DNA from: Vulcanimicrobiota bacterium
GTDB taxonomy: Bacteria > Vulcanimicrobiota > Vulcanimicrobiia > Vulcanimicrobiales > Vulcanimicrobiaceae
DNA length: 64,000 nt
Direction of reading: 5' to 3'
Assembly (NCBI GenBank): GCA_963714015.1
Contig: OY970223.1
Span: forward strand, 1,088,001 to 1,152,000
Shown: piece after piece, positions 7,944-62,800 of the stretch
How the letters are laid out: every line of letters begins with the position of its first letter
Position numbering within the stretch: position 1 is the stretch's first letter
Position numbers and translations under genes: made by a program
Notes under the pieces: model-generated
Seen by the model: only the letters and a program-made list of their open reading frames with translations
Told to the model about the DNA's origin: nothing
The model's database searches: none

Positions 7944-9192
7944 GTGCCCCAGAAAACGGGCGTCTTCGGCCGCAGGCACTGGATTCCGCCGGCGGCGCTC
8001 ATTTACGCACAGGCGGCGCACGGGTTTTCGTGGGCGCTGATTCTGCTTACGGCCTGGACGGGTAATTTCGGCAACGTTCTCTATGCGTTTGCATGGATCC
8101 ACACGGTCGCCCTGGGCTGGATAACGATGGCCGCGCTGGCAATTTTGGTTTTTGCGATTCCTCAGTTCACCGGCGTCGTTTGGCGTGGTGAAACGATCGC
8201 GCGTTGGTCTCTTGCGGCGTATGCAGTAGGCACAGCCGCTCTGATTTGGGGCTTCTTGAGCGATTCGCCGCTGATTGCCATAGCGGCGGGAATTATCGTT
8301 GCAGCGCTGCTGGCGTACCTTGCAACGGCGTTTGCCTCGCTATCGGCGGCATTCTTCTACGATTCGAGCAAACGCGTCGAGCGCGCCGTCGCGCGCGCGT
8401 TTGCCGGAACGCTGCTGTTTTTGCTGGCTACGGGCCTGCTCGGTTTCGGCCTTGCGTGGATGCTTGGAGGCGGCGCTATTCGCGGCGGCATCATTCCGTC
8501 GCCCGGCTCGCACGCCGCATTGGGGACGCTCGGCTGGCTTTCGCTGCTTATCTTCGGCGTGTCGATGCGTACGCTGCGCCCGATTAGCGGCGTGGCAACC
8601 CGTTTCCGAATGCTTCACATTGCCGTCGGCTCGCTGACGCTGATCGGAGTACCGCTGATCGCAGCCGGCGCCGGACTCAATTCAGCGGCTATCTCATGGA
8701 TCGGCGCCGCGCTCTTTGGCGTTGCGGCATTGACCTATGCTTTCGACGTCATAGACATCCTGCGGCGCGCCGTCGTGCGGCACCGTCCTCCGCAAGCATT
8801 CATCGGCGCCGCGATCGCGTGGTTTCTCACCGCGCTCGCTCTTGGTACGGGCGTTTTGCTGGGAAAACCGTGGCAGCCGGCTTATATCTTCGTTCTGCTC
8901 GCCGGATGGACCGGACAGATGGTGAACGGGCATTTCCACCACATCGGCGTGCGATTACTGGCGACGGTCTACCGCGGTGAAGACGACGAAACGCCGCCGG
9001 AAGATTTGCTCGAAACACGCCTTTCCTGGTATACGTTTGCCGCCATTCGAGCTGGGTGTGTTAATCGTGCTCGTCGCATTGCTGCGGGACGATGCCGCAC
9101 TCGCTGCGCGCGGAGCAATCTTCGGCCTCGGCGGGTGGATTGCGATGGTCGCGAACCTGCTCGCGGCCCGCACTCGTGCCGTAGCGGCTTAG
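7944..9192 (+). CDS. Polytopic membrane protein with His-containing helices (heme-copper-oxidase/NnrS-like), apparent +1 frameshift at about 9049
   Basis: About 12 TM segments, WIHTVALGW and HAALGTLGW repeats; C-terminus continues in ORF 8977..9192. Confidence 0.65.
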
Positions 9193-9764
9193 TCGCGCCC
9201 CATGCGGTAGAATTCGACGTTCGGCCGCATGTCCATGACTCCGGCCATGCGGTTGGAGAATCCGAAGAACGCGGCGATTGCGGCAATGTCCCAGATGTCG
9301 TCGTCGCCGAATCCCGCCAAATGCAGTTCGTCGATGTCGTGCTCGGTGGCGGCGAATCCGGGCTCGTTGACTTTCGAAGCGAATGCAAGCATGGAACGCA
9401 GCCGCATGGAGATGCCGGCGGTTCGCCAGTTGTTGGCTATCTGCTCGGCGGTAACGGCGTTCTTGCCGATCAGGCGCAGTGCCGCACCGTGGGCGACCAT
9501 GCAGTATTGACAGCGGTTTTCGGATGAAACGGCGACGACGATTGCTTCGCGTTCCGCCCGGCTCAGATTGCCGGGGCCTTTCATGAGGACGTCGTGGTAC
9601 GTCATGAACGCGCGAAAGTGCTCGGGCCTGCGCGCATATGCGCGAAAGACGTTAGGGACGAAACCGATCTTCGCTCGGTTCTGCTCGTAGATTTCGCGGA
9701 TGTCGTCGGGGAGTTCGCTTTCCGGCGGCTCCCCGAAGCGTGAAACCTGTAGACGGGTTTCCAA
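9189..9764 (-). CDS. AhpD/carboxymuconolactone decarboxylase family peroxidase-related enzyme
   Basis: GFVPNVF, EREAIVVAVSSENRCQYCMVAH, FFGFSNR. Confidence 0.9.
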   Translation of the reverse strand: METRLQVSRFGEPPESELPDDIREIYEQNRAKIGFVPNVFRAYARRPEHFRAFMTYHDVLMKGPGNLSRAEREAIVVAVSSENRCQYCMVAHGAALRLIGKNAVTAEQIANNWRTAGISMRLRSMLAFASKVNEPGFAATEHDIDELHLAGFGDDDIWDIAAIAAFFGFSNRMAGVMDMRPNVEFYRMGRD

Positions 9765-9857
9765 GAGCGACTACTTGCTGTTCCCGCAGGAGACGCAGAT
9801 CGCGATTTGTTTCAGGCTCTCGTGCACGTTGACGGCAGGGCTTGCCTGTCCCCTTTC

Positions 9858-12707
9858 TTAGCGGTGCGCTCGTAGGGCGCGTTCGATTGAATCGACCGCA
9901 GCGGCAGCTTGTTCCGTCGGAACGGCGTCGGCTCCCTCTACTACGTCGAGAAGCGCCGAAAGCTGATCGTTCATAGCGGCCATTTGCGGATTGGATCGAG
10001 CGGCATAGGTGCGATTCATGAGTTCGACGATGCGGCTTGCCAGCGCGAACTGTTCGCGCAATCCGGCCTGCGAGATCGCGACCCGCGGATCCATCCGCAG
10101 GCGCAGCGGCCGCGTGTACGTGCGGCCGTCTACGGTCATCTTCACGGTATACGTCCCCGGAAGCGCCAGGACGCCTTGCGGAATGCGCGGGGTATCCTCG
10201 TATATGGCCGAAATCGGATAGTCGTGCGTGACCGCATCGGGATCCCCGTAGCGATAGTCCCAAACGAAGCGGTGCAGCCCCGCGGTGGCTGCGGGAATTT
10301 GCGTCCGCGCTACCCAGTACGTCGGCTTGTCGATCTCCGGAACGATCGGAATCGGCTGGTCCGTGCTGCTGAAATGGCGGACCAGATGACCGGCGCTGTC
10401 GTATATGGCAAGCGTAAGGGGGCCGCTCGCGTCCTGCGGCAAGTAGTAGTCGATGACGGCGCCGTCCGGGGGATTCTCTCCCGCCGGTTCTTCGGGCGGC
10501 AGCGGAGTATCCGTCCACGTGTCGCGGCGCAAACGGTACGCGCCGGCCGGTTTGAACAAATACGGCCGGGTGCCCGTTGCCGCTGTGTCGCGCAGTGCGC
10601 TGACGTCGTCCAGGATCCAGAACGAACGGCCGTGCGTCCCGACCACGAGATCGTTGCCGTGCACGACCAGATCGCGGATCGAAGTGGACGGAAGATTGAA
10701 CTGCAGAGGCTGCCACAGTTTACCATCATCCAAGGAGACGTAGACGGTTTGCTCGTTCCCCGCATACAACAGACCGCGCCGCACCGGGTCTTCGCGCACC
10801 GTGTTCGTCGATTGGCCGGCCGGGAGCCCCGAGGTAACGAGTTGCCACGTGCGGCCACCGTCGTGCGTGCGATAGACGTAGGGACGATAATCGTCGATCC
10901 GGGTTGCGTTAACCGCGACGTATGCGGTGCCCGCATCGAAATGCGAGGCATCGATCTGCGCGATCTGACTCCATGAAGCGATGCCGCGAGGCGTTACGTT
11001 TTGCCAGCGCCGCCCGCCGTCGCGCGTGACCCACACCAGTCCGTCATCGGTCCCGGCCCAAATCGTGTTCTTGTCGATGTAGGACGGAGCGATGCTGAAG
11101 ATTTCACCGCGATGCACGCCGTTCGCCAGCGGTGAGTCTTTAAATGCGCCTAAGTTCGCGGGAACGCCGGGATTGCTGCGGGTGAGATCGGGGCTGATCG
11201 TCTTCCAATGATAGCCGCCGTCCGTAGTTGCAAGCATGACGTTCGATCCGAGATACAGCGTGCGCTTGTCGACGTAGCTGAAAATGATCGGCGTCGTGCG
11301 GTTGAACCGGAGCGTTCCGCCATACGAAGGTGAAACGTCTTGAGTCTGCTGCGTGCGTTCGTCGTAACGGGAAACCACGCCGATTCCGGCTCCGTAGATA
11401 AGGTTGGGATGAAGCGGATCGGGCGCGATGTACGCGTACTCTTGCGCGCCTACCGGGTGAAAATAGCGGATCCAGATTTCTCCGTCTTCGCTGCGGCTCG
11501 CAACTTCCGCGCTTCCGCTCTCCTGCTGTCCGCCGAAGACCCAGTAGGGAAAGCGATTGTCCGTGATGACGTGATAGAACTGCGCGGTCGGCTGATTGTA
11601 CCAGCTGCTCCACGTCTTGCCGTAATTCACGGAAAGCGTGGCACCCTGATCGACGCCGAGCAAAATGACGTTGCGGTCCGTCGGGTCGATCCAGATCGTG
11701 TGATAGTCGTCCCCGCCGGGCGCGCCTTTGGTGGGAACCCACGTCTTGCCGGCGTCCGTCGATCGATACATCGACGTGTTGGCGACGTAGACGACGTCCG
11801 CGTCGGTCGGATCGACGGCCACGCCCGAGAAGTCGTCGCCGCGCCCGCAGACGCGCTCCTCCGAATCGGTCTGCGTCCAAGAAGCTCCCGCATCGCTCGA
11901 TCGGTATATCCCGCAGCTCTTGGCGCCGTTCACCCAAGCGTAAAGCCGGCTGGAATTGCTCGGAGCCACCGCCACGCCGATCCGGCCCACACCGGACGGC
12001 AAGCCGGTCTTGAGCTGCGTCCACGTAGTGCCGCCGTCGGTCGACTTATAGAGTCCGCCGTCCTGCCAAATCTGCAGCGTGTCGCGCAGGCGCCACGGCG
12101 GATTGCGGCCGGCCCAAAGATCCGCATAGAGCGTATCGGGATGATTCGGATCGATAACCACGGTCGCCGATCCCGTGTCGGCGTCTTTGCCCAGCACTTT
12201 TTGCCACGTTCGCCCGCCGTCGGTGCTTCGGTAAACGCCGCGCTCGGCATTCGGTCCGTACGGGTCACCCATCACCGCAGCGTACACGCGATCCGGCGAT
12301 CGCGGATCGACGGCAATCGCGCCGATCTGCATGCCGTCGCGCAGGCCTAAATGCGTCCACGTTTTCCCGGCGTCCGTCGACTTATAGATACCGTCGCCCG
12401 TGGAGAGATCGGGACGGCGCAAACCTTCGCCTGACCCGGCATAAATGACGTTCTGATCGCTCGGCGCTACTGCAAGCGCGCCGATCGAGCCGGTGTCTTG
12501 TCCGTCGAAGATGGGCTTCCACGTGCGCCCGTAATCGGTGCTCTTCCATACACCGCCGTCGGTTGCGCCGAAGTAATAGACACCCCGCTGCGCCGGTGCG
12601 CCGGCCACCGCGACGGTTCTGCCGCCGCGAAACGGTCCGATGAGCCGCCAATGAAAAGCCGTCTGCCCCTGTGTCAAGAGCGCGGCAGAAAAAGCAAGTG
12701 CGAGCAT
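9858..12707 (-). CDS. Secreted BNR/Asp-box (VPS10-like) repeat glycosyl hydrolase
   Basis: WRLIGPFRGGR, many S/TxDxGxTW repeats, ATHGR-like VGTHGRSFW, C-terminal PGTYTV. Confidence 0.88.
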   Translation of the reverse strand: MLALAFSAALLTQGQTAFHWRLIGPFRGGRTVAVAGAPAQRGVYYFGATDGGVWKSTDYGRTWKPIFDGQDTGSIGALAVAPSDQNVIYAGSGEGLRRPDLSTGDGIYKSTDAGKTWTHLGLRDGMQIGAIAVDPRSPDRVYAAVMGDPYGPNAERGVYRSTDGGRTWQKVLGKDADTGSATVVIDPNHPDTLYADLWAGRNPPWRLRDTLQIWQDGGLYKSTDGGTTWTQLKTGLPSGVGRIGVAVAPSNSSRLYAWVNGAKSCGIYRSSDAGASWTQTDSEERVCGRGDDFSGVAVDPTDADVVYVANTSMYRSTDAGKTWVPTKGAPGGDDYHTIWIDPTDRNVILLGVDQGATLSVNYGKTWSSWYNQPTAQFYHVITDNRFPYWVFGGQQESGSAEVASRSEDGEIWIRYFHPVGAQEYAYIAPDPLHPNLIYGAGIGVVSRYDERTQQTQDVSPSYGGTLRFNRTTPIIFSYVDKRTLYLGSNVMLATTDGGYHWKTISPDLTRSNPGVPANLGAFKDSPLANGVHRGEIFSIAPSYIDKNTIWAGTDDGLVWVTRDGGRRWQNVTPRGIASWSQIAQIDASHFDAGTAYVAVNATRIDDYRPYVYRTHDGGRTWQLVTSGLPAGQSTNTVREDPVRRGLLYAGNEQTVYVSLDDGKLWQPLQFNLPSTSIRDLVVHGNDLVVGTHGRSFWILDDVSALRDTAATGTRPYLFKPAGAYRLRRDTWTDTPLPPEEPAGENPPDGAVIDYYLPQDASGPLTLAIYDSAGHLVRHFSSTDQPIPIVPEIDKPTYWVARTQIPAATAGLHRFVWDYRYGDPDAVTHDYPISAIYEDTPRIPQGVLALPGTYTVKMTVDGRTYTRPLRLRMDPRVAISQAGLREQFALASRIVELMNRTYAARSNPQMAAMNDQLSALLDVVEGADAVPTEQAAAAVDSIERALRAHR

Positions 12708-12746
12708 TTGCTCGCACTTGGCTCACGTTCGAAGGCTTCCTGCGCT

Positions 12747-13418
12747 CTACCGCTTGCGGATTTTGCGGCGCTTGGGCTGAAAAGGACCGCCGATCTTGAG
12801 CGCTTTGTTGCGCGGCAGCGACGCATCGACGTCCTGGCAGCCGATGGGTGAGAAATCCCGGCAGTCACCGGGGCGGGCTTCGTAAACGCCGCAGTAATAC
12901 CGGCCGGGCGCCGCTTCCTTTAGAAACACGCAGCGATCGGCTACGTCATCCGTGATTTTTCTAACCCACCCCAGATAAAAACCGTCGGCGGATTTGCGTT
13001 TGACGATGTACTCGTCCAAAACTTCTTTCGGCGGCATATTGAGGAAGCGCGCCAGGCGATCGACGTCGCCGCGGCTCACGAACGGCTCGTAACCGCTGCA
13101 GCACTCCGCGCAGCCCGGCGGGCACGCGATATTCTCGGGCAAGTCTCTGTGGTGTTTGCGCGCCAGCTCGATGACCTTTGCAATCGCCGCGACGAGCTCC
13201 GGATCGTCGTTGTACTTGTACTCCCACTCGCGCACGCTGATCTCGTTTGCGTTGTAATAGCGCGTGATGCTTTCGTTGTACGTTACGGTGATGTGCTCTT
13301 CGTCGATCTCGATCTTCTTGACGTGTTCGATGGGGCGCGCGTCGAGCATCTCCGGATGCGCGGGCTGGCCGGTTTCGCGCGCGTAGTTTCGCAGGGTAAT
13401 CAGGTCGATGGTTTCCAT
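12747..13418 (-). CDS. YkgJ-family (CxxCxxCC) cysteine-cluster protein
   Basis: CPPGCAECC, CVFL, CGVYEARPGDCRDF. Confidence 0.85.
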   Translation of the reverse strand: METIDLITLRNYARETGQPAHPEMLDARPIEHVKKIEIDEEHITVTYNESITRYYNANEISVREWEYKYNDDPELVAAIAKVIELARKHHRDLPENIACPPGCAECCSGYEPFVSRGDVDRLARFLNMPPKEVLDEYIVKRKSADGFYLGWVRKITDDVADRCVFLKEAAPGRYYCGVYEARPGDCRDFSPIGCQDVDASLPRNKALKIGGPFQPKRRKIRKR

Positions 13419-13509
13419 GTCGGATAGGGGCTTCGACAAATGGCTCGAAACTGCCCCCAGTCTTTAGGAAACCGCTGAATTATTTCAGGGTTCTTTAGGG
13501 AGGAGCAGA

Positions 13510-14472
13510 GTGCGCAAGGCCATCGGCGTGGATTTGGGCGGTTCCCACGTAACCGCTGCGGTCGTGCAAGAAGACGGCAAGATTCTCTCGCAGCACGAAC
13601 AGGACATCAACGATCGTGCGTTCGACGCCGTGATTGCGTCCGTCGAAGAGGTGACCAAGAACGCGCTCAAGGACGCCAAGGATGACGACTTAGCCGGCAT
13701 CGGCATCGGATCGCCGGGGAACATAGATCTGCCGAGCGGCGCCGTTCTCTGGTCGCCCAATTTCTTATGGACCAATGCGCCGCTGGGCGAACGGCTGCGG
13801 GCGACCTTCCGGCTGCCGATTTTCGTCGCGAACGACGCGCGCTGCGCAACTCTGGGCGAGTACATGTTCGGAACGGGGAGCGGAACCGAGAACTTCGTGC
13901 TGCTCACGCTCGGTACCGGCATAGGCGGCGGCATCGTATCGAACGGCGAGCTGCTGATCGGACATCGAGCGGGTGCGGGCGAGATCGGACATCATCAGAT
14001 ACGGCCGACGGACGGATTCATCTGCGGTTGCGGCAAGATCGGTTGTTTTGAAGCGCAGGCATCCGGCACCGGTTTATTGCGCCACGCAGTCGCCGTCGCG
14101 CCCTCTTTTCCGCGCAGCGTACTGCTCGACAAGAGTAAAGACAAACTGGGCTCCAAAGCGATTCGCCGCGCCGCTCAAGCGGGGGACTTGCACGCTTTGG
14201 CGGCCTGGCGCAATTACACCGGCGATCTGGCGCTCGGACTGGCGAACATCATCGCGTTCATCAATCCTCAACGGATTGCGCTTGGCGGGGGCGTGAGTTC
14301 CGCGGGCGAGTTTATGCTCGAGGCTGTTCGCGCGCGCGTCGACCAGCTCACGACGATGGTTCCTCCCGGCACGACCGAGATCGTCATCGCGCAGCTCGGC
14401 AACGACGCCGGACAAGTCGGCGCCGCTACGGTCGCGTTTCAAGGCGGATTAAAGCGCAGCCATGCGCGCTAA
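13510..14472 (+). CDS. ROK-family sugar kinase (glucokinase)
   Basis: IGVDLGGS, ANDARCA, TLGTGIGGG, GEIGH, CGCGKIGCFE; SD GGAGG. Confidence 0.92.
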   Translation: MRKAIGVDLGGSHVTAAVVQEDGKILSQHEQDINDRAFDAVIASVEEVTKNALKDAKDDDLAGIGIGSPGNIDLPSGAVLWSPNFLWTNAPLGERLRATFRLPIFVANDARCATLGEYMFGTGSGTENFVLLTLGTGIGGGIVSNGELLIGHRAGAGEIGHHQIRPTDGFICGCGKIGCFEAQASGTGLLRHAVAVAPSFPRSVLLDKSKDKLGSKAIRRAAQAGDLHALAAWRNYTGDLALGLANIIAFINPQRIALGGGVSSAGEFMLEAVRARVDQLTTMVPPGTTEIVIAQLGNDAGQVGAATVAFQGGLKRSHAR

Positions 14473-15232
14473 GCTCGCGCTCGTCACGGGGGGTTCAGGC
14501 GGCATCGGACTCGAGCTCGCGCGATTGTTCGCGCAAGCCGGATACGACCTGGCTTTGGTTGCGCGCGGCGCACTGAAGCTCGAAGAGGGTGCGCAAGCGC
14601 TGAGCTCGGCCTTCGGCGTCAACGTCAAAAGGATGGCTCTCGATTTGGCGCAGCCTGGTGCGGCGGCGGACGTCTTCTCGCAGATACCGGCATGCGACGT
14701 GCTGGTCAACAACGCCGGTTTTGCGAACAGCGGCCCGTTCGCGGCGGCGGACCGGCAAGCCGTTTCGAGCGAACTGCAGCTGGACGTCGTTGCGCTCACC
14801 GAGCTCACGCGGCTGTACTTGCCCGGAATGCTGGAGCGTCGCGACGGAAAGGTTTTAAACGTCGCTTCCACAGCGGCATTCGTTCCGGGCCCAAACATGG
14901 CAGTGTATTATGCCGCCAAAGCTTACGTGCTTTCATTCTCCGAAGCGCTTGCGGAAGAAGTGCGCGCGGGCGGCGTTACCGTAACGTGCCTCTGCCCGGG
15001 AGCGACCGATACCGGTTTCCAGAAGCGCGCCGGAATCGAACGAACGCCGTTGATTCGCCTTGGCATGGCGGACGCAGGAAAGGTCGCGAAGGCGGGATTC
15101 GAAGGTTTGATGCGCGGCAAGCGCGTCGTCATTCCCGGCTTGACGAATAAACTCGTCGCTTTTTCACCGCGCATCTCACCCCGCGGTTTATTGTTGGCGA
15201 TCTCCGCCCGCCTCGTGAAAAGCTCAAACTAG
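14462..15232 (+). CDS. SDR-family oxidoreductase
   Basis: TGGSGGIG, NNAG, YYAAK. Confidence 0.92.
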   Translation: MRAKLALVTGGSGGIGLELARLFAQAGYDLALVARGALKLEEGAQALSSAFGVNVKRMALDLAQPGAAADVFSQIPACDVLVNNAGFANSGPFAAADRQAVSSELQLDVVALTELTRLYLPGMLERRDGKVLNVASTAAFVPGPNMAVYYAAKAYVLSFSEALAEEVRAGGVTVTCLCPGATDTGFQKRAGIERTPLIRLGMADAGKVAKAGFEGLMRGKRVVIPGLTNKLVAFSPRISPRGLLLAISARLVKSSN

Positions 15233-15368
15233 AAGGCGGGCCAAGGATACACGAATGTTTATCGTCGGCCTGCTTTCGCAGTTCGAACGACCCGACGCGT
15301 AAATTGATCTTTCTGGATAGACTCGTCGCGGCCGGCCGGCATATGAACGCCCAACGCGTTAATCAGAG

Positions 15369-16085
15369 TCATTGGGGCGCCGAGGCTTGGCGCCGGATGT
15401 TGCCGGGAAGCCGTTCGTAGAACTGATAGTTGGAGTATGTGACCGTTGCGCGCTCGCGCAGCCAGAAGAGCAGTCCATGTCCGCGCACGTGCGCCTGCAC
15501 GTCGCTTGGGAACACGAAGGAGCCGAAGCGCCCGAAGTGTTCTTCTAAGTCGACGGTCACGCCTGAATCGTCGAAAGTGCCCGCGGCGCCCACCGGCGTG
15601 AGCGATACCGGGTCCACATAGAGCCGGCCGAACGGATTGTCGCTTGTATCCCCGTCCGTATCGCGGCAAACGGCGCTGAGCGAAATCTCCAGTACGCTGC
15701 TGCCTTCCCAGGTCGTCTTCTTTTCGGATTGCGGCACGTAGCACTGCGGCCGGAAGGCGGGACGGGTGACCGGATTGGTGTTTTGACGGCTTTCATAATG
15801 GCCGGTGGAGAAGTTCTGCAGCGTTCCCTCTACCACGGCTCCGTCTTTGGTGCGCACGAAAACCGTCTGAAAAGGTTCGGAATCCCCGGCGATGCCGTGC
15901 GCACTCGCACTCGTTTGAAACGAGACGTATGGCGGACGGCTGGGGTGCTGCAGCATGAAGACGGCCTTGGCGTAATCGTCGGCTGGAATCATGCCGGATA
16001 TACATGCCGGCGCTCCCTCTTGTTTCGCGTCGCCATACGGCGGGAGGGCTCTCGCAGCGCCAAGAATTGCTCCTGCACAGCACAT
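15369..16085 (-). CDS. Hypothetical exported beta-rich protein (start uncertain)
   Basis: 238-aa ORF, divergent from the receptor gene. Confidence 0.55.
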   Translation of the reverse strand: MCCAGAILGAARALPPYGDAKQEGAPACISGMIPADDYAKAVFMLQHPSRPPYVSFQTSASAHGIAGDSEPFQTVFVRTKDGAVVEGTLQNFSTGHYESRQNTNPVTRPAFRPQCYVPQSEKKTTWEGSSVLEISLSAVCRDTDGDTSDNPFGRLYVDPVSLTPVGAAGTFDDSGVTVDLEEHFGRFGSFVFPSDVQAHVRGHGLLFWLRERATVTYSNYQFYERLPGNIRRQASAPQ

Positions 16086-16111
16086 CTTCGAGTGAGTGGA
16101 GGAGAGCTCAG

Positions 16112-19100
16112 ATGGGCATTCGGCGCAGTTCGTACCGTTGGATCGCGCGGGCGATCGCGGCGGCTTGCTTTTCAGTACTATTCATCACGTTTTCGACTCT
16201 GCCGGCCTTTGCTTCGACGGTCGGCGTCATCAGCGGCGTCGTGACGGACGCGAGCACGGGAGCGCCGCTGTCCAACGTTTCGGTGGTGGCGCAGTCCCCC
16301 AGCGGCCGATATGGCGGCGCAACGGACGCGCACGGGTTTTACTCGCTGGCCGGAGTGCAGGCCGACACCTACAGCGTCAGCTTCAACAAGAGCGGCTATC
16401 AAGCGATCTCGATCGCGGGCGTGGGCGTGTTCGCGGATCAGACGCAAACCGTCTCGGCGAAACTCTGGAAAGAGCTGCGCACGATTGCGAGCGTGCGATC
16501 GTCTGCTGTCGGCAGCGCCTACCATCCGACCCAGACGACGGACACGTATACCGTCTCGGCGCCCCAGGTTCAGAACTTTCAAGGGACCGTATTCAATAGC
16601 GATGAGTCCAATCTCATAGCGTCCCTTCCCGGCGGCATGTACGACTCGAGCGGCTATCCGGTGATTCACGGCGGTCGCGAGTACGAGAACGATTTCGAGT
16701 TCGAAGGCATTCCGTATACCGACGCATACTCGAATCAGTTCGTAAACTCGCTCGCACAGCCGACGATCGGCGTGGCCGAGGTCGAGCTTACGCCCGGCGC
16801 GGGCAACGCGACCGTCTCGACCAACGGACAAGGCTCGTTCAACGTCGTGGCAAAGCGCGGAACGTATCCTTCATACTTCGATTTTGGAACGAACGTGCGC
16901 GGCGGCGGTGAATACGACCACGGCTTCATCATGGATTGGAGTCTGGGCGACACCGGACAGCCGGTTTTCAAACTACATGACGTTTCAAGGCGACAACCGC
17001 GTTCCGATCATGGACAGCCAAGGCTTGCCGCTGGCGTACGTCGGCGGTTTCGGTGACGACCGTCTGGATGTCAACCGCGAGTTTCTCGACAACTTCGTCT
17101 TCCGGTTCGGACCATCGAAGAATCAGTCGCTGCAGCTGTTCACCGATATTGCCCAGCACAATTTCTATACCGGGCAAGGCGGCTTGGGCAATCTATGCTT
17201 CATGACCTGCGATCCGGTGATCACGCAGGTCTATGGCGGCATCTGGGGCCTCTCACCCGCGCAGATGACTGCGATCACACCCATGATCGCCTATCAAAAC
17301 AGTCCGAACGAAACGCTCGCGGATGCGAACCGCGCGCCGACGACGTACTATCAGCCGAATCAAGCGTACAAGGCGGAGTACACGATCAATCTCAATCCCT
17401 CCACGTATCTCTCCGAGGAGTGGTATCGCGTCAACTCGACCACGATTTTCGACATCGCGAACACGCTCGGCAGCATCACGGGCGACGGCTACATCTATCA
17501 GGGCGGGCAAACAACGGGCAGCAGAACGGAGTTCACTAAACAGCTGAACCGCCAAAACCTGCTCCAGCTGGCCTTTGACTACAATTACATCAAGCCCGAC
17601 GATCAGTGGATTTCACCGACCTTCCAATACTTCGGAGCGCTGATCGGCACGTCGGATCAGTTCTCGCTTCCGTACGCGTTCGTCAATCCGAGCGATCCCA
17701 ACTGCCCGGTTGCCGATACGCCGACGGGCTATGACTATTGCGGATACGCGTACGGCGCGAACCCGAGCGCTTCGCAGGCTGCAGTTTCCTCCCTTCGACC
17801 AGATCGACACCGTAACGCGCGAAGACTACTCGCTTGGCATCAACGACAAAATCGATTTTACCGACAAATTCAAATTGGAACTTGGCCTGCGCGCCGATCA
17901 TGCGACCTATCTGATGCCCGCCCCCGGAGTCGATCCGGCGACCTGCACGACGGAGTATTTGCCGCAGACTTGGCTGCCCAATCCGGCATTCAAACCGATC
18001 GTCGATTCCAACGGCAATCCGACGGGCGCGACCTTCGGCAACGGCAACTGCCCTTACTCGGCGACGTACGGATTCAACAACGATTACTTCAAACCGACGA
18101 TCTGGCAGCCCCGAACGGGCCTCTCCTACGAACTGGATCCGAATACGGCCATTCGCGTTACGTATAACCGCAGCGTAACGTTCCCGCCAATCGCCACCGT
18201 AGCGTTCGGGCAGATCGATCCGTCGTTTTATGGGAATCCCTACGGCAAACTGCCGGCTTACAACCTCAACTTCAATGCATCGCCGGGCTGTGCGCCGGTG
18301 ACGGCGGCAAATCCCAACGGCGTTTGTGCGCCGGGCCTGGCAGGGCTGACGCCGGCACAGCGGATCCAAAATCAGACTCAGCACGAATTGCGGCATAAAC
18401 GCATCAGTCGGCAGCAACTCGCTGCTGGTCCCATGCGTTAACTTCGGCGAGCAGCTCTACTGGATCGCGCAGAACTTCGACGGGATTCCGTTCCAGCCGG
18501 TCAAGCCCGAAACCGCCAACAATTATCAGATCACGCTGCAGCACCAGTTTACGAAGGGCTGGCTCAACGGCGTCGCGATGAGCATCGCGCCATGGACGCG
18601 CCACCAGTACGATACGACGGCTCAGCAAGCGCAATTGATCCTCACGCCGAGCGGGCAGCCGCTGGTAGTGAACGGCCAGATCCAGCAGGGTCCAGCCGTT
18701 TTCAACAACAACGCGCACGAGTACGCATCCGGGATCGATCTCGACGTCACGCGAATCGAACCGTACGGACTCAGCGGACAATTGACGGCTTCCTACATCA
18801 ACGAATTCTCGAGCGTCATTCCGCTCAGCGGCTCCGAGGATTTCTATCCGAACATTCCGGCGCCGTCGATTCTGGCCGGGAACGTCTACCGCGTGGGCTT
18901 CCTTTCACCGTTCCAAGCGACGCTGGCTCTTTCGTACAAGACGCGCAGCGGGTGGACGTTCAATCCGCGGTACTATTACGACATCGGCTATCCGACGAGC
19001 ACCGGAACGCTGACCGCCGCAATCATCAACGGCGTGGCGCTCAACCTTCCCAATACCGATGCGGTCGTCGGAACCTCACCGAACGGCCCCGCCTTCTACG

Positions 19101-19507
19101 TCGATCCGCTCAATCCGGGATCGGTATTCAAGCCGAACGTCATCGGAAGTAACGGCACGTCCATGACCAGTTCGCCCGGCGGAAAGCTCTCGCCGCCGAA
19201 CGCCACAGCCGACTTTACGGTCACGTATTCACCGCCGCAGAGCCGCTGGACGATCGGCTTCAACGTGAACAACGTATTCAACGAGATCTATAACGGCGCG
19301 GTGTTCAACGACCGCTTGGCGCCGATCACGCAAGGCGTCAACGGCCCGCTTACGGGTTACTCGAGCAGTACCACGGATTACGCACCGAACGCGCCCTATG
19401 CATGGCCGCGATACGATCCGGGAATCGAATACGGCCAGCAGATGTACGTCGATTTCCCAAACACGATCCCGCGCAATTACTACTTCTTCATGCAAGTGAA
19501 GATCTGA
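16112..19507 (+). CDS. TonB-dependent-receptor-like outer-membrane protein with N-terminal carboxypeptidase-regulatory-like domain; three apparent +1 frameshifts (about 16942, 17778, 18376)
   Basis: Signal peptide; GVISGVVTD...G.Y.....ADTYSVSF domain; plug-like IHGG; barrel motifs LGLRAD, WQPRTGLSY, VKPETANNY, FNVNNVFN; C-terminal YFFMQVKI. Spread over ORFs 16004, 16884, 17710 and 18578. Confidence 0.85.
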
Positions 19508-19514
19508 GGTGCAC

Positions 19515-20769
19515 ATGCGCAAACGATTGGCGTCACGTCGTATTAGCGCCGCAATTGCGGCGGCCTTTCTGGCCGGGTGTTCGACCAACGGCGCAACGAG
19601 CATTCCTTCCAGCGCGCAGGCGCCGCTGACGGGCTTCACCCTGCAAGTCGCCGTCGGTACCGCAATCATCGGCCAAGACGGAAACGCGCCGGCACTCAAC
19701 GTCGTTACGACATTCCGGCAGTCCGGCGGTTCCACCGCAGTGCTCATGGACGATCCGGCGCTCACCGGTCCGGCGGGATTCAAGGTTCCCGCGGGCGCGC
19801 GCGGAGCGTATTCGAATCCCGGCGCGTTTCCGAATATCGGCGGAAACGTCGATGCCGGCACCTCAACGATAAGCACGGCGCCGCAGGTGCCGCTCAACGT
19901 CAATCCGGTAAACACGACGCTCGGAACGTTTACCGGCGCCTTCAGTTACGGATTCGGACCGTTTAATTCGGACAATGTCATGACGTCGGTCGGCGCGTAC
20001 ATGCCGGGCAATCCGAACCAGACGCCGGGCAACGGATTTTTGTCTTCGATCTATGCCGGTTCTTCCGTCATAGCACTCTCGCAGAACACTACGTTTGATG
20101 CCACGCAGCCGCTGCCGTTCTACGGCACGAATCTCATGGACTATCTCGGCGGTCCGCCGGCTTATCCGTTCTTCAAAGACGGCACGTTCCCCGGAACGTT
20201 TGCGGGCTATTCACAAGGCTTTTATCTCTTTGAAACCCCGCCGGTTGCCGGTAGCTACGATCTGTCGGTAAAGATCCCGGCCGTGAATGCTGCGGTCCAG
20301 ACGTACAAAGCATCCGCTACGCTCAAGAGCGCGGCTTCGCCTTTTGGCGGACCGCTCACGGTGGGCGGAATAATCGAAGACGGCAAAGGCGGTTTGAGCG
20401 GAACGGTGACGATCCCGTCGGGCGTTACCGAGGCCATGGTCTACATCGTCGACGCTACCGCAGGGTTGTTCTACACCGTCGGTCCGATCAAAGCAACGGG
20501 AACGCAGAGCTGGACGCTTCCAGACTTTCTTGGACCGTGCAACGGAACCGGATGTCAAAACAGTGCGTCCACGCAAACGGCTTCGATCGCTCCCGGAACC
20601 GTCCGGGCCGAATACGGGCGACGCCTACTTTGTAACGGCCGTAGGCTACGATTATCCGGCGTTCGAAGCGGGGCCCCCGGGCAATACTTCGACCGCACCG
20701 GTCATCACCGGCGCGAACGGCCAGGCAGATTTGATTACGGCCGCGATAACGGGGCCAAACAGCTACTAG
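19515..20769 (+). CDS. Gly/Thr/Pro-rich lipoprotein downstream of the receptor; apparent frameshift at about 20597
   Basis: LAGC lipobox; C-terminus continues in ORF 20530..20769. Confidence 0.7.
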
Positions 20770-20771
20770 TC

Positions 20772-22494: not shown

Positions 22495-22514
22495 TCGCTA
22501 TTTTCTTTCTCGGT

Positions 22515-23163
22515 TTGTGCGCGTGTACGCCGGTAACTTACCGCCACAACAATACCACGGTGTACATACCCTACGTCGTTAACGCTGCCTTAAGCTGGCA
22601 TTCGCCAGGCTATGCGGATGTGATTGCGGGTATGCGCCTTTTGCGCGACGGACCTCCGACCGCGAGCGTTACTCTTGCAATCACGCGCGCCATCCTGCAT
22701 ACGAACCCGCGAATTGCGCCTACGGATGCGCTGCAGCTCTGCAGCTGCCGCGGTGCGCGCGGCGCGCGCAAATGCGCTGCCGCCGGAGTTTCTCGCCGCG
22801 GCGCTGCTGCAGGAGTCCGCATTCGATCCTTGGGCCATCTCGTCCGCCGGAGCAGTGGGCATCGCGCAATTCATGCCGTACACTGCCGCCGGTGAGGCGG
22901 TGAATCCGTTCGATCCATTTTCGTCAATCGACGGCGCGGCGCGGCTGCTCTCGTCTTACCTGATCGCTTATTCCGGAGTGTACGCGAACCCGTACGCGGC
23001 CGCACTGGCGGCATACAATGCCGGTCCCGGTGCGGTGCAAGCATATGGCGGCGTGCCTCCGTACCCTGAAACGCGCGCGTACATTGCCGACATCGTCGAC
23101 CGGTGGGCCCAGATCGCCGGTTACGAGCGCCCCGCGCGGGAAATGGATGCATCCGGCGAATGA
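22515..23163 (+). CDS. Lytic transglycosylase (SLT domain), probable lipoprotein; apparent frameshift at about 22739
   Basis: QESAFDP.AISSAGAVGIAQFMP, AAYNAGPGAV, GVPPYPET; start uncertain. Confidence 0.8.
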
Positions 23164-23170
23164 CGTGCGG

Positions 23171-29830: not shown

Positions 29831-30433
29831 CGGGCGTGCGTCCTCATGCGCGAAGCAGCAGACTGCGAGTGCAAATTCGGTGAGCAATGCCAGCGCCGCG
29901 ACGGCGATTGCTCCGGTCCATAGTTGAGCGGGGACGTTCGCCTGCAGCCCGCTCTGAATATAGTCGCCCAGGCCGCCGGCGCCGATGAAGGACGCCAGCA
30001 CGGCGCTCGCCACGACCTCCGTGGCCGCGGTGCGAATCCCGGAGAAGACGACCGGAAACGCGAGCGGCCACTCGACCCGCACGAAGGTTTGTGCGCTTGT
30101 CATCCCCATGCCGCGGGCGACGTCCCTCGCTGCCGCCGGGACACCGCGCAGCGCCACGTCAGTCGTGATGACGATCGGCGCGACCGCGAGCAGCGTTATC
30201 GCCGCCAGCGCCGGCAAGAAGCCAACGCCGAAGAGCGGCAGCATGAACGTAAGCAGCGCGAGCGAGGGTACCACGCGCCCCAAGTTCGCCGCTCCCAGAA
30301 TCAACCCCCGAAGCGCAGGAAGGCGAGCGGCAAGAACGCCGAGCGGAACGCCGGCGGCACAACCGGCGGCAAGCGCAGTCGCGGCCAATTCGACATACTG
30401 CCGCACGTGAATCAGAAAATCGGGCCAATCCAT
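29827..30433 (-). CDS. Osmoprotectant-type ABC permease (a +1 error at about 29862 fuses it to the binding protein)
   Basis: VPSLALL, DVARGMGM, GAGGLG; removing one base gives ...SRMRTHAR-stop with a TTGA overlap. Confidence 0.85.
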
Positions 30434-42284: not shown

Positions 42285-43457
42285 TGACGACGCAGATGAT
42301 CGCGACGACGGGCGAACTTACAGCGCTGTGCGAGCGCGTTGCGTCGTCCGGTCAGGTGGGGCTCGACACCGAGTTTCATAACGAGCGCAGCTATGCCGCG
42401 CGGCTCATGGTCGTGCAGACTCGCTTTTCGCGATGGTTGCGCGATTGTCGATCCGCTCGCGGTAAGCGATCTAAGACCCCTCGCGCAAGCATTGTGCCGG
42501 ACGACGGTCGTCGGCCATGCGCTCACGAGCGATCTCAAGATCTTTGCGGACCGCTTCGGCGTCGTTCCGGAAGACGTGTTCGACTGCCAAGTCGCGGCGG
42601 CGTTTCTGGGTTACGGCATCTCAATCTCGCTCGCCGATTTGGTACGCGAACTCTGCGGCGTGCGGTTGAAGAAGTCGCAGACCGTCAGCGATTGGTCGCT
42701 GCGTCCGTTCTCCGAGAAGCAACTGGAGTATCTGGTCGACGACGTCGCTCACCTGCTCGAGATGCACGACATTCTTACAAATAGGTTGAGCGCGAATGGC
42801 CGCTTGGAATGGGCGAACGAGGAGTGCCGTGCTCTCGGCGGAGCGTCGCGCTATCAGACGGACGAGCGCCGGATGGTCGGCCGCATTCCGGGCGCGAGTC
42901 GCATGAACCGCCGGGAACTTGCGATTCTCGGCGAACTCGTGAAGCTGCGCGACCGCTTGGCGCGAGAGCGCGACCTTCCGCTCAAATACATCGTTCCGGA
43001 CGACGTTCTCGGAGGATTGGCGACTTTGCGTCCCCGACGGATGGAAGAGTTGGCACAACTGCGCCGTCTCGACGCCGGAACGCGCCGCGGATTGGGAGAA
43101 CAGCTTCTCGAAGCGATTCGCCGCGGTGAGGCGATTCCCGAAGAGGATCTGCCCCCAAAATTCGCGCGCCCGCTGGGAAATGCGCGCGAAACCATCGTTT
43201 CGCTCATGAGCGTCGTAGTCGGCGAGATTGCTCGCGAGAATGACCTGCCGGCGAGCTTGCTTGCGCCTCGCGCAATATTGGAGAAGGTGGCGCGAGAGGT
43301 ACCGCCCGAGCGCGACGCGTTCGAACGAGCACTGGACCTGTCTCCCTGGCGCAGGGGCCTTGTGGCAGAGCCTCTGTGGCGACTTTTGTCGGCCGAGAGC
43401 GCAATCCGAATCGAAGGCTACGCAACAGGCGAGCCACGAATTGTCCTAGAGTCATGA
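42284..43457 (+). CDS. rnd: Ribonuclease D (DEDD exonuclease plus HRDC), apparent +1 frameshift at about 42419
   Basis: [12 protein letters not shown] in the first frame, then FDCQVAA, SDWSLRP...QLEY..DDV and HRDC. Confidence 0.88.
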
Positions 43458-46205
43458 CTGAGATAGTGAACTCCTTCGGGGCGGTCGATCGCATGACGGT
43501 CGCCAACCGGACCTATTCGTACGTTCGACTGGGCGCGCTCGAAGATGCCGGGATTGCGAAGCTCGAACGTCTGCCGTTCTCGTTGAAGATTCTGCTCGAG
43601 AATTTGTTGCGGTTCGAGGACAATCGTTCGGTCTCCAAAGACGATATCGAAGCGCTGGCGCGTTGGAGTCCGCACCATCACACTGCGCGAGAAATTGCGT
43701 ATCGGCCCGCGCGAGTGCTGCTGCAAGACTTCACCGGCGTTCCCTGCGTCGTCGATCTCGCCGCTATGCGGGACGCAATGGCGAAGATGGGGGGAGACCC
43801 GAACGCGATCAACCCCCAGCAGCCGGTCGAACTCGTGATCGATCACTCGGTTCAGGTCGACTCATTCGGATCGAGCGATTCATTCCAGCGCAATGCCGAT
43901 CTGGAGTTCGCGCGCAACCGCGAACGGTACGCGTTTTTGAAATGGGGACAGCACGCGCTCAAGAGCTTCCGGGCCGTGCCGCCGGACACCGGAATCGTGC
44001 ACCAAGTGAACATCGAATTCTTGTCTCGCGTGGTGTTCGGCGCCGGAGGCGCCGGATCGAATGGCGAGTCCGGCGAAGCTTGGGCGTTTCCGGATACAGT
44101 CGTCGGAACCGATTCACACACGACGATGGCCAATGGCCTCGGCGTGCTTGCCTGGGGCGTTGGTGGAATCGAAGCCGAAGCCGCGATGCTTGGCCAACCC
44201 GTCACAATGCTCATTCCGGACGTCATCGGGTTCAAAGTCACGGGGCGTCTGCGTGAAGGCGTAACCGCGACCGACCTCGTTCTAACGGTTACCGAAATGC
44301 TGCGCAAGAAGGGCGTCGTCGGAAAATTCGTCGAGTTTTACGGCCAGGGGCTCTCGACTCTCGGTGTTGCCGATCGCGTTACCATCGGCAACATGTCGCC
44401 GGAATACGGTTCCACTTGCGCGATCTTTCCGATCGACGATCAGACGTTGGAGTACCTGCGTCTTACCGGCCGCGCGCCCGATCACGTTGCGCTCGTCGAG
44501 GCGTACGCCAGACAGCAGGGGCTGTTCCGCACCGATGCTACACCGGATCCGTCGTTTACGGACACGCTGGAGCTCGATCTCGAAGGCGTCAAACCGAGTT
44601 TGGCCGGACCGCGCCGTCCGCAAGACCGGGTTTCCCTCGAAGAGGTCAAGCCCGCGTTCGAAACGGCGATGCAAGAATGGGTTGCTGCGCGCGAAGCCAA
44701 GCCCGCCAGCGCAGCGGCGCGAATGGAGAACGAAGGCGGACCGGGCGTTGCCGTCGAGTCGGCGCGCGTTTCCGACGGTTCGGTAGTCATCGCTGCGATC
44801 ACCAGTTGCACCAATACCAGCAACCCTTCCGTGCTCGTTGCGGCGGGACTGCTTGCGCGCAATGCTATTCAAAAAGGTTTGTCGCGCAAGAAATGGGTCA
44901 AGACGTCTCTTGCGCCCGGATCGAAAGTCGTCACCGACTACCTGCGCAAATCCGGCTTGCAGACGTACCTGGATCAGCTCGGCTTTAACCTCGTCGGCTA
45001 TGGATGCACGACTTGCATCGGCAACAGCGGGCCCCTTCCGCAAGAAATCGCGGAATCGATCGCAGAGCACGATTCGATCGTTGCTGCGGTGCTTTCCGGG
45101 AACCGGAACTTCGAAGGGCGCATCCATCCGCAGGTTCGCGCGAATTACTTGGCCTCGCCGCCGCTCGTCGTCGCGTACGCTCTCGCCGGGCGGATCGACA
45201 TCGACCTCACCAGCGAACCGATCGGTGAAGACCACGCGGGCAACCCGGTGCATTTGAAAGATATCTGGCCGAGCAACGCCGAGATTTCCGCCGTCATCGC
45301 CCAATCCATCAGCGACGAGATGTTCAAGGCCAACTACCGTGACGTCTTCCGGGGCGACGACAATTGGGCAAGATTAGACGTGCCGACCGGCGATCGTTAC
45401 GCTTGGGACCCCGAATCGGAGTATGTGAAAAATCCGCCGTACTTCGAGGATATGAAATCGGAGCCGGACGCCGTAGCGGATATTCACGGCGCCCGCGTGC
45501 TGGCCGTGCTCGGCGACAGCGTGACGACCGACCATATTTCCCCCGCCGGCAACATCGCCAAGGTCAGTCCGGCCGCAAAGTACCTGATGGAGCGAGGGAT
45601 TCAACCGGCCGATTTCAACTCATACGGCGCCAGACGCGGCAACCACGAAGTGATGATGCGCGGCACATTCGCTAACGTCCGGCTGCGCAACCAGCTGGTT
45701 CCGGGAGTGGAAGGCGGCTACACGCGATACCTGCCGACCGGCGAACAGATGTCCATTTTCGACGCCGCGATGAAGTACAAAGCCGGCGGCACGCCGCTGA
45801 TTGTCATCGCCGGCAAGGAATACGGGTCGGGATCGTCGCGCGACTGGGCGGCGAAAGGGCCGTACCTGCTGGGAATCCGTGCGGTGATCGCGGAGTCGTT
45901 CGAGCGCATTCACCGCAGCAATCTCATCGGCATGGGGATTCTTCCGCTGGAGTTTGAATCGGGCGCCGATCGCTCGACTTACGGACTGACCGGCGAGGAG
46001 ACGTACGAACTTACCGGTCTGGAGCGCGGCATAACCCCTGGAATGCACGTGCACGTTCGCGCGTCCGACTCCAACGGCAGGCCGATCGGTTTTCGGGCAT
46101 TATTGCGAATCGATACGCCCGACGAAGCCGAATACTACCGCCATGGCGGCATTTTGCAGTACGTTTTGCGGCAGACTGCGGCAAAAACAGACTGCCGGCG
46201 TCTAG
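43454..46205 (+). CDS. acnA: Aconitate hydratase A (apparent +1 error at about 46175 near the C-terminus)
   Basis: [60 protein letters not shown]. Confidence 0.97.
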
Positions 46206-46217: not shown

Positions 46218-46860
46218 ATGCGGCATCATGACGAGCCGGAAGAGCGCTTTATCCGTCGGCTCGAGGCGTTCTGCGACGTCGTTATCGGGTTTAGCCTGGC
46301 CCAGCTCGGGCTGAACCTGACTATTCCCAAGAGCGGTGCGGGAGCTCATTACGAGTCCGCTATGGTTCTTCGGCTATCTCTTTGCCTTCTCAATCGTTTG
46401 CAGTATGTGGTTCTTCCATCATCGTCTCTTCTCGCAATTCTTCGTTCCCAAAACTTGGCCGATTCTTTTGAATTTTGCATGGCTCGGTCTCTTGGTATTG
46501 CTCGTATATTTCACGCTGTTGTACGTGAATCCCAAACTGGCGGGCGATCCGGTCATCATGCGTCTCTATTTCGGCGGTTACGCCCTTGCCTACGCGATTC
46601 TCGGCGCGCAGTATCTTATAGGAATGCGGTATCTGCGTGATACGCTCGACCAGCATGCGCGGGCGCAGGGCCGCCGCGGCGCGGCATTCATGTTTCTGTG
46701 GATGACGCCGTTTCTGTTTTGCTTTATCGTGGTCATAGCACTGCCGGCCAGCCCGCTCCTCGGTATGTTGATCGGGCTTGCGTTCGTCGGCGTTGGCATC
46801 GCATCGGGCGTACTCGGAAGCCGATACCGCCGTTCCGAGCGAACTTTGTCGTCGACATAA
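46218..46860 (+). CDS. TMEM175/DUF1211-family membrane protein, apparent +1 frameshift at about 46341
   Basis: [10 protein letters not shown]...W..HHRLF. Confidence 0.75.
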
Positions 46861-55365: not shown

Positions 55366-55366
55366 G

Positions 55367-59851: not shown

Positions 59852-59880
59852 TTGCGCCGGCGCATTTCGTTCCCTAGAAT
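59852..59880 (+). promoter_or_regulatory. Sigma70-type promoter, leaderless transcript
   Basis: TTGCGC-N17-TAGAAT-N7-ATG(59888). Confidence 0.7.
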
Positions 59881-59887
59881 AACGTGA

Positions 59888-62800
59888 ATGCGACGCTATT
59901 TTTTTGCTTTCGTTTTCGCACTCTTCGCTGCAGCCGGAGGATCGGCGTTCGCGCAATCGAGTCCGTCGCCGCAGCCAAGTCCTTCGCCGCGCGAGAATCC
60001 GCCCAAGCCCGCTAATCCGACGCCAACGCCGAGTCCCTCGCCTACGCCGGGGCCGCCGTGGTCCGGCATTCACTGGCGGGAGATCGGTCCGGCGCTGCCC
60101 GGCGGACGCGTCGCAGCCGTTGCGGGATCGGCGTCGGATTCTAAGCCTGTACTATTTGGGTTCGGCCGGCGGCGGCGTTTGGAAATCGCAAGACGGCGGT
60201 GAAACGTGGCAGCCGGTCTTCGAAAAAGAAGACGTTTCGGCCATCGGCGCGGTCGAGATCGATCCGCAGAAGAACGACACCGTTTGGGTTGGAACGGGTG
60301 AAAGCAATCCGCGCAACGACGTCAGCTACGGCGACGGCGTATACAAATCCACGGACGGCGGCAAGACCTGGAAAAACATGGGTCTTCGAGCCACGCGGCA
60401 CATCTCGCGTATCCTGATCGATCCGCATGATTCCAACCACGTTATCGTCGGTGCGCTCGGCGATGTTTTCGGTCCGAGCCAGGATCGCGGCGTGTACGTT
60501 ACGACCGACGGCGGCCAGACGTGGAAGAAGACGCTGTATCTGAGCGATCAAAGCGGCGCTTCGGACTTGGCGATGGATGTGCAGAATCCGAACGTGATTT
60601 ACGCGGGTATGTGGCACTTTTTGCGCCGTCCTTGGACGTTTACGAGCGGCGGTGAGGACGACGGTCTATTCAAGTCGACCGACGGCGGTCAAACTTGGAC
60701 GAAGCTTACGGGACATGGTTTGCCTTCGGGAATCGTCGGCAGAATCGGCCTCGCGGTAGCACCCAGCGACGGAAAGAGCGTCTACGCGCTCATCGAATCG
60801 AAAGAGGGCATTCTGTGGCGTTCGAAAGACGCCGGCGCGACGTGGACGATGGTCAGCAACGACACTCTCGTCGATCAGCGGCCTTTCTATTTCACGCACA
60901 TCGCCGTCGATCCGAAGAATCCCGAAAAGGTTTACGGCGTCTCCGAAATGCTCTCGGATTCAACGAACGGCGGCAAGAAGTTCACCGAGATCGCTCGTGA
61001 CGTTCACGTGGATTATCACGCGATTTGGATTGCGCCGAACGATCCGAACCGGATCATCGTGGGTGAGGACGGCGGCATCGCCCGTACAGTCGACGGCGGC
61101 GATAATTGGTTCTTTGGACGCAACATCCCGATCGGCGAAGTCTATCGCGTCGCGGTTTCAAACGAGAATCCGTATTGGGTTTGCGGAGGATGGCAGGACA
61201 ACAACGGATGGTGCGGACCGAACAATTCGCTTGACCCTTCGGGCTTGCTCAACAAATATTGGATCGCTTCGACGGGAGGCGACGGCGAATGGTCCGTTAT
61301 CGATCCAATCGATCCCAACTGGTTGTGGGCGGATTCGGAGAACGGCTCGATCAGCGTGTACAACAAAGTCACCAAAGACAGCATCGGCGGGATGCCGTAT
61401 TTGCAAACCGGCCTCGAGCAATATAATCTCTCGCTCTCCAAGTATCGCTACAATTGGGAGTCCCCGATCGCGTTCGCGCCGTGGGATGGACACATCGGTT
61501 GGCTCGGCGGGAACGTCATTTTTCAAACGACGGATCGCGGAATCCACTGGACGGTGATCAGCCCCGATCTGACGTTGAACGACAAAGCCCATCAGCAGCC
61601 TTCGGGCGGGCCGCTTGTGCACGACGTCTCCGGTGCGGAGTATTCCGATACCATCCTGGACATCGAGGGCTCGACGTTGCACAAAGGCGAGATCTGGGTC
61701 GGTACCGACGACGGTCTGGTTCAGCTCACTCGCGACGGCGGAAAACACTGGAAGAACGTTACGCCGCCGGGACTTGCGCCTTACGGACGTTTCGAAACGG
61801 TCGCTCCTTCTACGCTTCACGACGGCACCGCCTATGCGGCGCTCGACCGCCATTTCATGGGCGATTTCCGGCCGTATCTATTCGTTACGAACGATTTCGG
61901 TGCGCATTGGACGCCCCTCGTCAGCAATTTACCGCAGGACCAGTTCGCGCGAACGATTCGTCAGGACATTCGCAATCCGCAGATCGTCTATGCGGGAACC
62001 GAAAACGGCATGTGGGTGAGTTTCGACGGCGGCCGCAAATGGAACGACTTCCGCAACAACATTCCCGCGGTTTCAATCCACGACATTCGCTTTCAGCCGC
62101 AGTGGGACGATCTGGTCATCGCTACGCACGGCCGGGCGATTTACATTATGGACGACATTCGTCCGATTCAGAACCTTCCCGCCGCAATGGCTCAAGGTTA
62201 CGCGTTCTTCGGGCCGCGCACGGCATACCAATACAATATGCACTCCGACGATGAGGGCATTTACACGGACTATGCCGGAAAGAATCCGCCCAACGGCGCC
62301 CTGATCTACTTCTATCAGAAGAACGCTCCAAAAGCTGCGCCGGAAATTCAAATCTTGGACGCGCACCGCAGCCTGATCCGCACTATTTCGGGGACGCACA
62401 AAGTCAACGGCAAAGATCAGCCCTATATCCCGAACAAAGTCGGGATCAACTCGTTCGTATGGGATTTCAGCATCGATGGTCCCGTCAAGTGGTACGGCGC
62501 CGCCAAAGAACGCTATCAAGGTCCGGATCACGGCCCGACTGTGCCGCCCGGCACCTATTTCGCGCGTATGACTCTGGGCGGACGAACTTACACGGACCGC
62601 TTCGCCGTCAAGGCCGACCCGCGCACGAAGATCACGCAGGCGGAGCTCCTCCAATCATTCGACTTCTCCAAACTGTGGATGCACCGTTTCTCCGTCGTGG
62701 ATACGATGCTCAATAACCTTGACGCCGTCCGCAAGCAACTCCAGTCCGTCAAAGCGGCGAATCTTTCCGCTCAAGCAAAAGCCGATCTGGACCGGCGGGA

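Follow-up and report, generated by a model that had tools for sequence, protein, structure and literature searches.

Methylation disturbs nanopore base calls near its motif, and does so only at some of the motif's occurrences, according to the accessible text of PMC12392509. Such errors are usable for finding motifs (PMC11610603, in the main text of which AGCT does not occur). For AGCT itself, Table S3 of Blow 2016 (PMC4752239) lists three methyltransferases of Methanohalophilus mahii (M. mahii), two of Type I and one of Type II. The latter, Mmah_1239 or M.Mma5219II, produces N4-methylcytosine (m4C) in AGCT, was detected at 96.2%, and has no cognate nuclease in that table. Persistent orphan groups of m4C AGCT enzymes, HG11, HG16 and HG19, occur in Nitrososphaerota and Methanomicrobiales, as far as the accessible text of PMC10609329 goes. 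Here we analyse a stretch of 64,000 nucleotides (the window, G000:C1:1088001-1152000) within the single-contig 3.56 Mb genome of a Vulcanimicrobiota bacterium, G000, in which single extra bases at AGCT interrupt genes, together with P0001, a candidate methyltransferase encoded 43 kb upstream of the window. Our literature searches, confined to one library, returned nothing relevant on AGCT with nanopore basecalling errors, no methylome paper for Vulcanimicrobiota and no methylation paper for Eremiobacterota.

The extra bases are very probably errors of the consensus sequence caused by methylation of AGCT, most likely to m4C by P0001, and the genes that carry them are intact. P0001 would methylate the C of this palindrome on both strands, most likely at N4. 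Native long reads, from a platform off record but probably nanopore, would underlie the single-contig assembly. The modified base would distort the signal or cause mis-segmentation of the reads at AGCT, and the consensus would then keep a single spurious base, mostly mid-word, at about 3% of all AGCT occurrences, the affected genes themselves being unharmed.

Single-base insertions at AGCT in the window

G000 is 89.6% complete and 0.06% contaminated, and its lineage carries the family label Candidatus Baltobacteraceae, taken from the labels of homologues. Its nearest relatives show about 75% DNA identity in alignment. The window was compared with relatives' proteins, with a frameshift-aware aligner, and by DNA alignment to G001, G002 or G003. 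A shift is called AGCT-repairable when deletion of one base mends it and an AGCT then spans or borders the deletion point; for a deletion placed at random, p=0.014.

The initial annotation had listed 11 single-base insertions, ten at AGCT and one near 20597. All 11 strings are found in the sequence, and comparison with relatives' genes confirms one extra base at each of the ten AGCT sites. Frame changes occur in relatives' proteins at about 9050, 16942, 17778, 18375, 20590, 22742-77, 42417-27, 46330-42 and 60144-60, and the aligner takes a +1 step at these nine positions and at 46175 (ten in all). DNA alignments show a one-base gap with AGCT intact in the relative at 16942 (G001), 42419 (G001, G003) and 46175 (G001, G002). 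At 9050, 17778, 18376, 22739, 46343 and 60146 the one-base gap lies at most a few letters away, 60146 being the least clean. The insertions were said to break genes, which stands except at 29860-29864, where two genes are fused in frame and none is broken. The aligner scan of the window also returned seven -1 and two +1 events (9750 and 28966), all from G013 or G017 queries, which were set aside as errors of those two genomes or gene junctions.

Independent contigs came from X1, a public soil run that may be the sample from which G000 came; they were compared with window positions 10000-29990, and at the indels their cover is patchy and their depth 3-4. X1 contains 36% of the sampled words from window 15900-20900; neither of two further runs, X2 and X3, covered the stretch usefully. 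Among the differences listed, all three X1 indels are a single base missing at AGCT (16104, 16942 and 22739), which by chance has p about 3e-6. Two of these bases had been predicted as extra: 16942, missing from a 450-nt contig with otherwise 0 differences, and 22739, missing from a contig of depth 4. The third, 16104, is a twelfth extra base beyond those of the initial annotation, an extra G missing from a contig of depth 3. Seven differences in an X1 contig over window 17507-17654 suggest that a second, related strain is present in the sample.

The sites are as follows, the inserted letter being bracketed and the strand + unless given. The gene carrying the extra base beside AGCT at 9048..9053 (ORF from 7944) is uncharacterised and resembles membrane-protein genes; the frame changes in the G001, G002, G013 and G017 proteins, and the aligner interval ends at about 9049. 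The extra G beside AGCT at 16104..16108 is non-coding and undetectable by any frameshift search, because it falls between a GGAGGA ribosome-binding site and the ATG start codon. A TonB-dependent-receptor-like gene, whose pieces match PF13620/PF00593, is broken three times, by AG[T]CT at 16940..16944, AG[G]CT at 17776..17780 and AG[A]CT at 18374..18378, the latter two being +1 relative to a 1108-residue G001 protein. The TonB-receptor-like operon (window 15900-20800) is on contig C36 in G001, its window neighbours being on C30; G002 and G017 had no match for it at the corresponding place. The +1 shift at 20587..20597 (about 20590), seen with relatives' proteins and the aligner, lies at a CCC run away from AGCT, outside the pattern as first reported, and is background error.

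AGCT[C] at 22735..22740 lies in a lytic transglycosylase (SLT) gene (PF01464), where 7 relative proteins change frame. On the - strand, the extra base in AGCT at 29860..29864 joins an osmoprotectant ABC permease in frame to a substrate-binding protein. The two are separate genes in 5/5 relatives (G001, G002, G009, G013, G017), and the frame shifted at 29862 stops at the length of the relatives' permease; the fusion appears to be false, with no gene broken, and is the least certain of all sites. AG[A]CT at 42417..42421 splits ribonuclease D (rnd), so that NF008089 is spread over two ORFs, and AG[A]CT at 46173..46177, close to the 3′ end of the gene for aconitase AcnA, gives a false C-terminal extension; the proteins of relatives terminate about 8 residues further on. 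The extra G before AGCT at 46341..46346 is in an uncharacterised gene and is seen with relatives' proteins, the aligner and DNA alignment. AG[C]CT at 60144..60148 falls close to the 5′ end of a gene resembling those of VPS10/BNR-repeat glycosyl hydrolases.

AGCT among frameshifts across the genome

The genome-wide AGCT enrichment for which the initial annotation proposed a test is present. For a homology-based test, 1672 proteins from parts of relatives covered 513 kb of G000 and gave 81 +1 and 29 -1 events. Events wider than 16 nt were excluded (2/81 in G000, 3/20 in G007, 1/54 in G013, 2/7 in G008, 1/5 in G017, 1/1 in G001 and 6/20 in G065). AGCT-repairable shifts make up 47 of the 79 narrow +1 shifts, versus 9.9 expected, and AGCT ranks first of 256 four-mers. 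The excess is about 42 AGCT events in 513 kb, which is roughly half of all +1 shifts there and, at 2.6 AGCT/kb, about 3% of the AGCT occurrences.

A reference-free scan, in which a codon model calls +1 and -1 non-junction shifts, was used at a setting that recovers 8/11 known sites; a first, stricter setting (190 events, 1/11 known sites recovered) was dropped. The scan gave 570 +1 and 232 -1 non-junction shifts in G000; the control, 398 kb of G001, put the false-positive level at about 17-21 +1 and 20-23 -1 calls. Within 8 nt of the +1 shifts, AGACT occurs 44 times (1.8 expected), AGTCT 30 times (2.3) and AGCT 85 times (19.2). Exact rescoring makes 269 of the 570 +1 shifts AGCT-repairable, versus 112.4 expected, and AGCT again ranks first of 256. 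The initially listed proportion of ten in 11 overstates the genome-wide share, which comes to about half (47/79; 269/570).

Of the 16 possible flank pairs around AGCT, 15 occur among the events, so the motif is the four-mer itself; the longer motifs GAGCTC, CAGCTG and AAGCTT were ruled out by the flank counts. The inserted letter tracks the flank, being A in 41/52 events after a 5′ C and T in 26/43 before a 3′ G, as expected of a k-mer signal error. AGCT-linked events are evenly distributed over the chromosome and affect homologues of relA/spoT, metF, nadA, hutH and aroA, as well as rnd and acnA in the window. AGCT density is equal inside and outside called genes, and in 1-kb bins over the whole genome no AGCT cluster indicating an origin or promoter role was seen. 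The maximum, 12 AGCT in 1 kb (mean 2.6), is at G000:C1:1039001-1040000, about 5 kb from the methyltransferase gene. Two stretches, G000:C1:1030650-1036925 and 1211366-1217706, hold clustered +1 shifts, mostly off AGCT, and are perhaps low-coverage parts of the assembly.

The commonest class of event has one base between G and C (115/269, plus 17 G insertions classed one place left), exactly where an AluI-like nuclease would make the blunt cut AG^CT. Mycobacterial non-homologous end-joining can add one base at a blunt cut. The extra bases could on this account be real scars of cutting and end-joining, or else ordinary pseudogenising mutations, an explanation that is largely refuted and very hard to credit. 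X1 lacks the base at all three of its listed indel sites, two of them predicted beforehand, and core genes are affected. Many insertions stand beside AGCT instead of splitting it, and the inserted letter depends on the flank. G001, a 60-contig assembly, carries P0001, yet its 210 kb of aligned sequence contain no narrow, placeable +1 shift; possession of the P0001 gene alone therefore does not break genes. The initial proposal that the genes are intact and the bases consensus errors thus gains support from both X1 and G001.

P0001 as candidate AGCT methyltransferase

A search for an AGCT methyltransferase, as the initial annotation had envisaged, led to P0001 (G000:C1:1044674-1045630). It is a 319-residue, apparently stand-alone beta-class methyltransferase of family PF01555, in which the catalytic DPPY motif precedes the FxGxG motif (beta order). 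It is flanked by a histidine kinase gene and by a gene whose product has no Pfam match, nucleases being hard to recognise from sequence; a histidine kinase is recognisable beside the P0001 counterparts in G001, G002, G003 and G017. Matches of 62-74% identity are present in ten of 40 relatives searched. Within the class P0001 is found in 32/301 genomes and 12/79 genera, including all sampled members of genera g1, g7, g35 and g37; both counts include the unpublished G021, on which nothing else here depends. The methyltransferase gene is itself frameshifted in L093 (G013) at about 2074 and in L092 (G007) at about 2245, at or within a few bases of AGCT.

Distant homologues of P0001 occur in Methanoculleus, Methanofollis, Methanospirillum, Methanohalophilus and many uncultured bacteria, with 49-61% identity over 80/80 loci. 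A Methanospirillum homologue is 54% identical to P0001 and the Methanoculleus and Methanofollis proteins 57-61%. In a quick tree, 11 labelled Baltobacteraceae rows fall with 8 unlabelled proteins in one 19-row branch (support 94). The ESM Atlas gave no more than a lead toward archaeal clusters, and PDB, plasmid and cluster look-ups yielded no specificity. The Methanohalophilus cluster includes ADE36743, an M. mahii DSM 5219 protein with which P0001 shares 57% identity over 320 residues. Since only one of the three methyltransferases listed for M. mahii is of Type II, and two sister genomes contain no full-length PF01555 match other than the P0001 homologue, there is a strong case, made by inference, that ADE36743 is Mmah_1239 (M.Mma5219II). 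P0001 is thus a candidate AGCT m4C writer, as judged from homology.

The claim that the genome modifies AGCT is supported indirectly by this 57% homology and by the co-occurrence of P0001 with the errors in relatives, for which 200 kb from each of four long-contig P0001-bearing relatives was tested; the positive side consists of five genomes including G000. AGCT-repairable +1 shifts number 12/17 in G007 (2.4 expected), 16/53 in G013 (7.2), 4/5 in G008 (0.7) and 4/4 in G017 (0.6), or 36/79 when the four are pooled. G065, without a P0001 match, has 14 narrow +1 shifts in 271 kb aligned, of which 1 is at AGCT versus 1.9 expected. G006, G011, G015, G048 and G067, also without a match, are uninformative because they have 0 +1 shifts. 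The association of P0001 presence with AGCT bias, G000 excluded, has a Fisher p=0.007, a value made to look too strong by the non-independence of kin and by there being a single informative negative genome. In G013 (L116-L125) the load of +1 errors is much higher, with 54 events in 114 kb aligned, and is accompanied by a CGCG-type enrichment alongside that of AGCT, possibly a second motif or repeat slippage.

The same comparison bears on whether AGCT is intrinsically hard to basecall or polish, with no modification involved. The biased relatives may have a pipeline in common, and the platform is off record. Nevertheless G065 has its 14 placeable +1 shifts without AGCT bias, and a matching methyltransferase is present in 5/5 biased genomes, which leaves this possibility very improbable.

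An artefact of the same kind could also stem from another enzyme or chemistry. The methyltransferase repertoire of G000 leaves room for this, with two genes of PF00145, three of PF01555, two matches to PF02086 and one MT-A70 gene, and no N6_Mtase over the cut-off. Three candidate writers were searched for in the 40 relatives: P0001, a C5 methyltransferase and a split enzyme at 429688. The C5 methyltransferase, fused to a helix-turn-helix domain (G000:C1:2073055-2074479), is convergent on a 338-residue gene (L080:7055-9505 = G000:C1:2073055-2075505) that has no Pfam match and 54 homologues, all hypothetical; hipA and an integrase are nearby. The two genes probably form a Type II restriction-modification pair. 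The second N4/N6 methyltransferase (L081:5688-6430, G000:C1:429688-430426), in island-like surroundings, is split by a +1 near AGGCT and may possibly be intact despite the split. In a prophage-like region, L079:6000-16000 (G000:C1 about 2676000-2686000), there are an N6/N4 methyltransferase, an MT-A70 gene and an incomplete C5 methyltransferase.

The mark could accordingly be AluI-like 5-methylcytosine (m5C) from the C5 enzyme, N6-methyladenine or a non-methyl modification. Enzymes making m5C in AGCT do exist (M.CspCY2I, in the accessible part of PMC4752239), and P0001 combines a DPPY motif with adenine-specific automatic labels. On the other side, neither the C5 enzyme (2073055, at 1e-10) nor the split enzyme (with this query) was found in G007, G008, G013 or G017, all of which are AGCT-biased, and the commonest insertion point adjoins the C, not the A. 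For DNA phosphorothioation-type marks, dndC (TIGR03183) has no match in G000, itself 89.6% complete, and Ssp systems were not searched for. Another enzyme or chemistry is therefore improbable. The initial annotation had named AluI-like m5C, m4C or another modification; m4C is now favoured, by the homology of P0001 and its co-occurrence with the bias, and AluI-like m5C is disfavoured because the C5 enzyme was not found in the biased relatives.

Several points weigh against AGCT methylation by P0001 as the source of the extra bases. Methylation itself, its m4C chemistry, P0001 as its writer and the sequencing platform are inferred. Differences in X1 contigs below depth 5, such as these at depth 3-4, may be errors; four of the six initially listed sites in 10000-29990 (17778, 18376, 20590 and 29862) are without an X1 entry among the differences listed, and 29862 may or may not be covered by an X1 contig that has substitutions at 29754/29756. 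The shifts that are not AGCT-repairable number 32/79, with no clear second motif among them. The 57% identity is below the 80% used by Nanomotif for motif transfer, the equation of ADE36743 with Mmah_1239 is indirect, and JGI labels P0001 homologues 'adenine-specific'. G013 is weakly enriched for AGCT (z 3.5, rank 2), and G065 is the sole informative negative genome. AGCT avoidance was dropped as evidence, the observed/expected ratio being 0.80 in G000 versus 0.79 in G065, which has no enzyme match.

Consequences and comparison with known systems

With AGCT methylation by P0001 as the preferred explanation, a few hundred genes in the G000 assembly and in related long-read assemblies appear broken, truncated or fused but are not. 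Claims of pseudogenes, fusions or completeness (89.6% here) for these genomes need an AGCT check first. A probable methylation motif and its enzyme can be assigned to an uncultured soil lineage.

A wider reading is that one Baltobacteraceae clade has kept a single stand-alone AG(m4C)T methyltransferase over about a dozen genera as a Dam/CcrM-like regulatory mark, and that frameshift spectra amount to a read-free methylome screen. The enzyme stands beside a sensor kinase gene in several genera, and the mark would be one that it has in common with methanogens and ammonia-oxidising archaea. We regard this combined reading as tentative and rather doubtful. If it is true, the frameshift spectra of public long-read genomes could be used to screen the methylomes of uncultured lineages without reads.

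Neither this type of error nor the enzyme family is new; the pattern is real, the frameshifts are artefactual, and P0001 is probably a new member of its family. The nanopore modification errors described in the accessible text of PMC12392509 and PMC11610603 share with the present ones a position in, or a few bases from, the methylated motif, and a minority of occurrences affected. The examples given there are substitutions at N6-methyladenine and m5C motifs such as GATC, whereas G000 shows single-base insertions at a four-mer with probable m4C. Unlike those examples, the present case was deduced from frameshifts in a public assembly without reads.

Among described enzymes, M.Mma5219II of M. 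mahii and M.MhuIV of Methanospirillum hungatei, both m4C AGCT methyltransferases according to the accessible text of PMC4752239 and PMC11033074, have the PF01555 beta-class fold and a length similar to that of P0001, and no cognate nuclease is listed for them in those sources. P0001 differs from them in belonging to a soil bacterium of Baltobacteraceae, in lying beside a histidine kinase gene, and in having a predicted activity only. Compared with HG11, HG16 and HG19, as portrayed in the accessible text of PMC10609329, P0001 is found in a bacterial clade and in only 32/301 class genomes, and it is set beside HG16 by description. Like these groups it is clade-persistent, in genera g1, g7, g35 and g37, and it shares 57-61% identity with the Methanoculleus and Methanofollis proteins.

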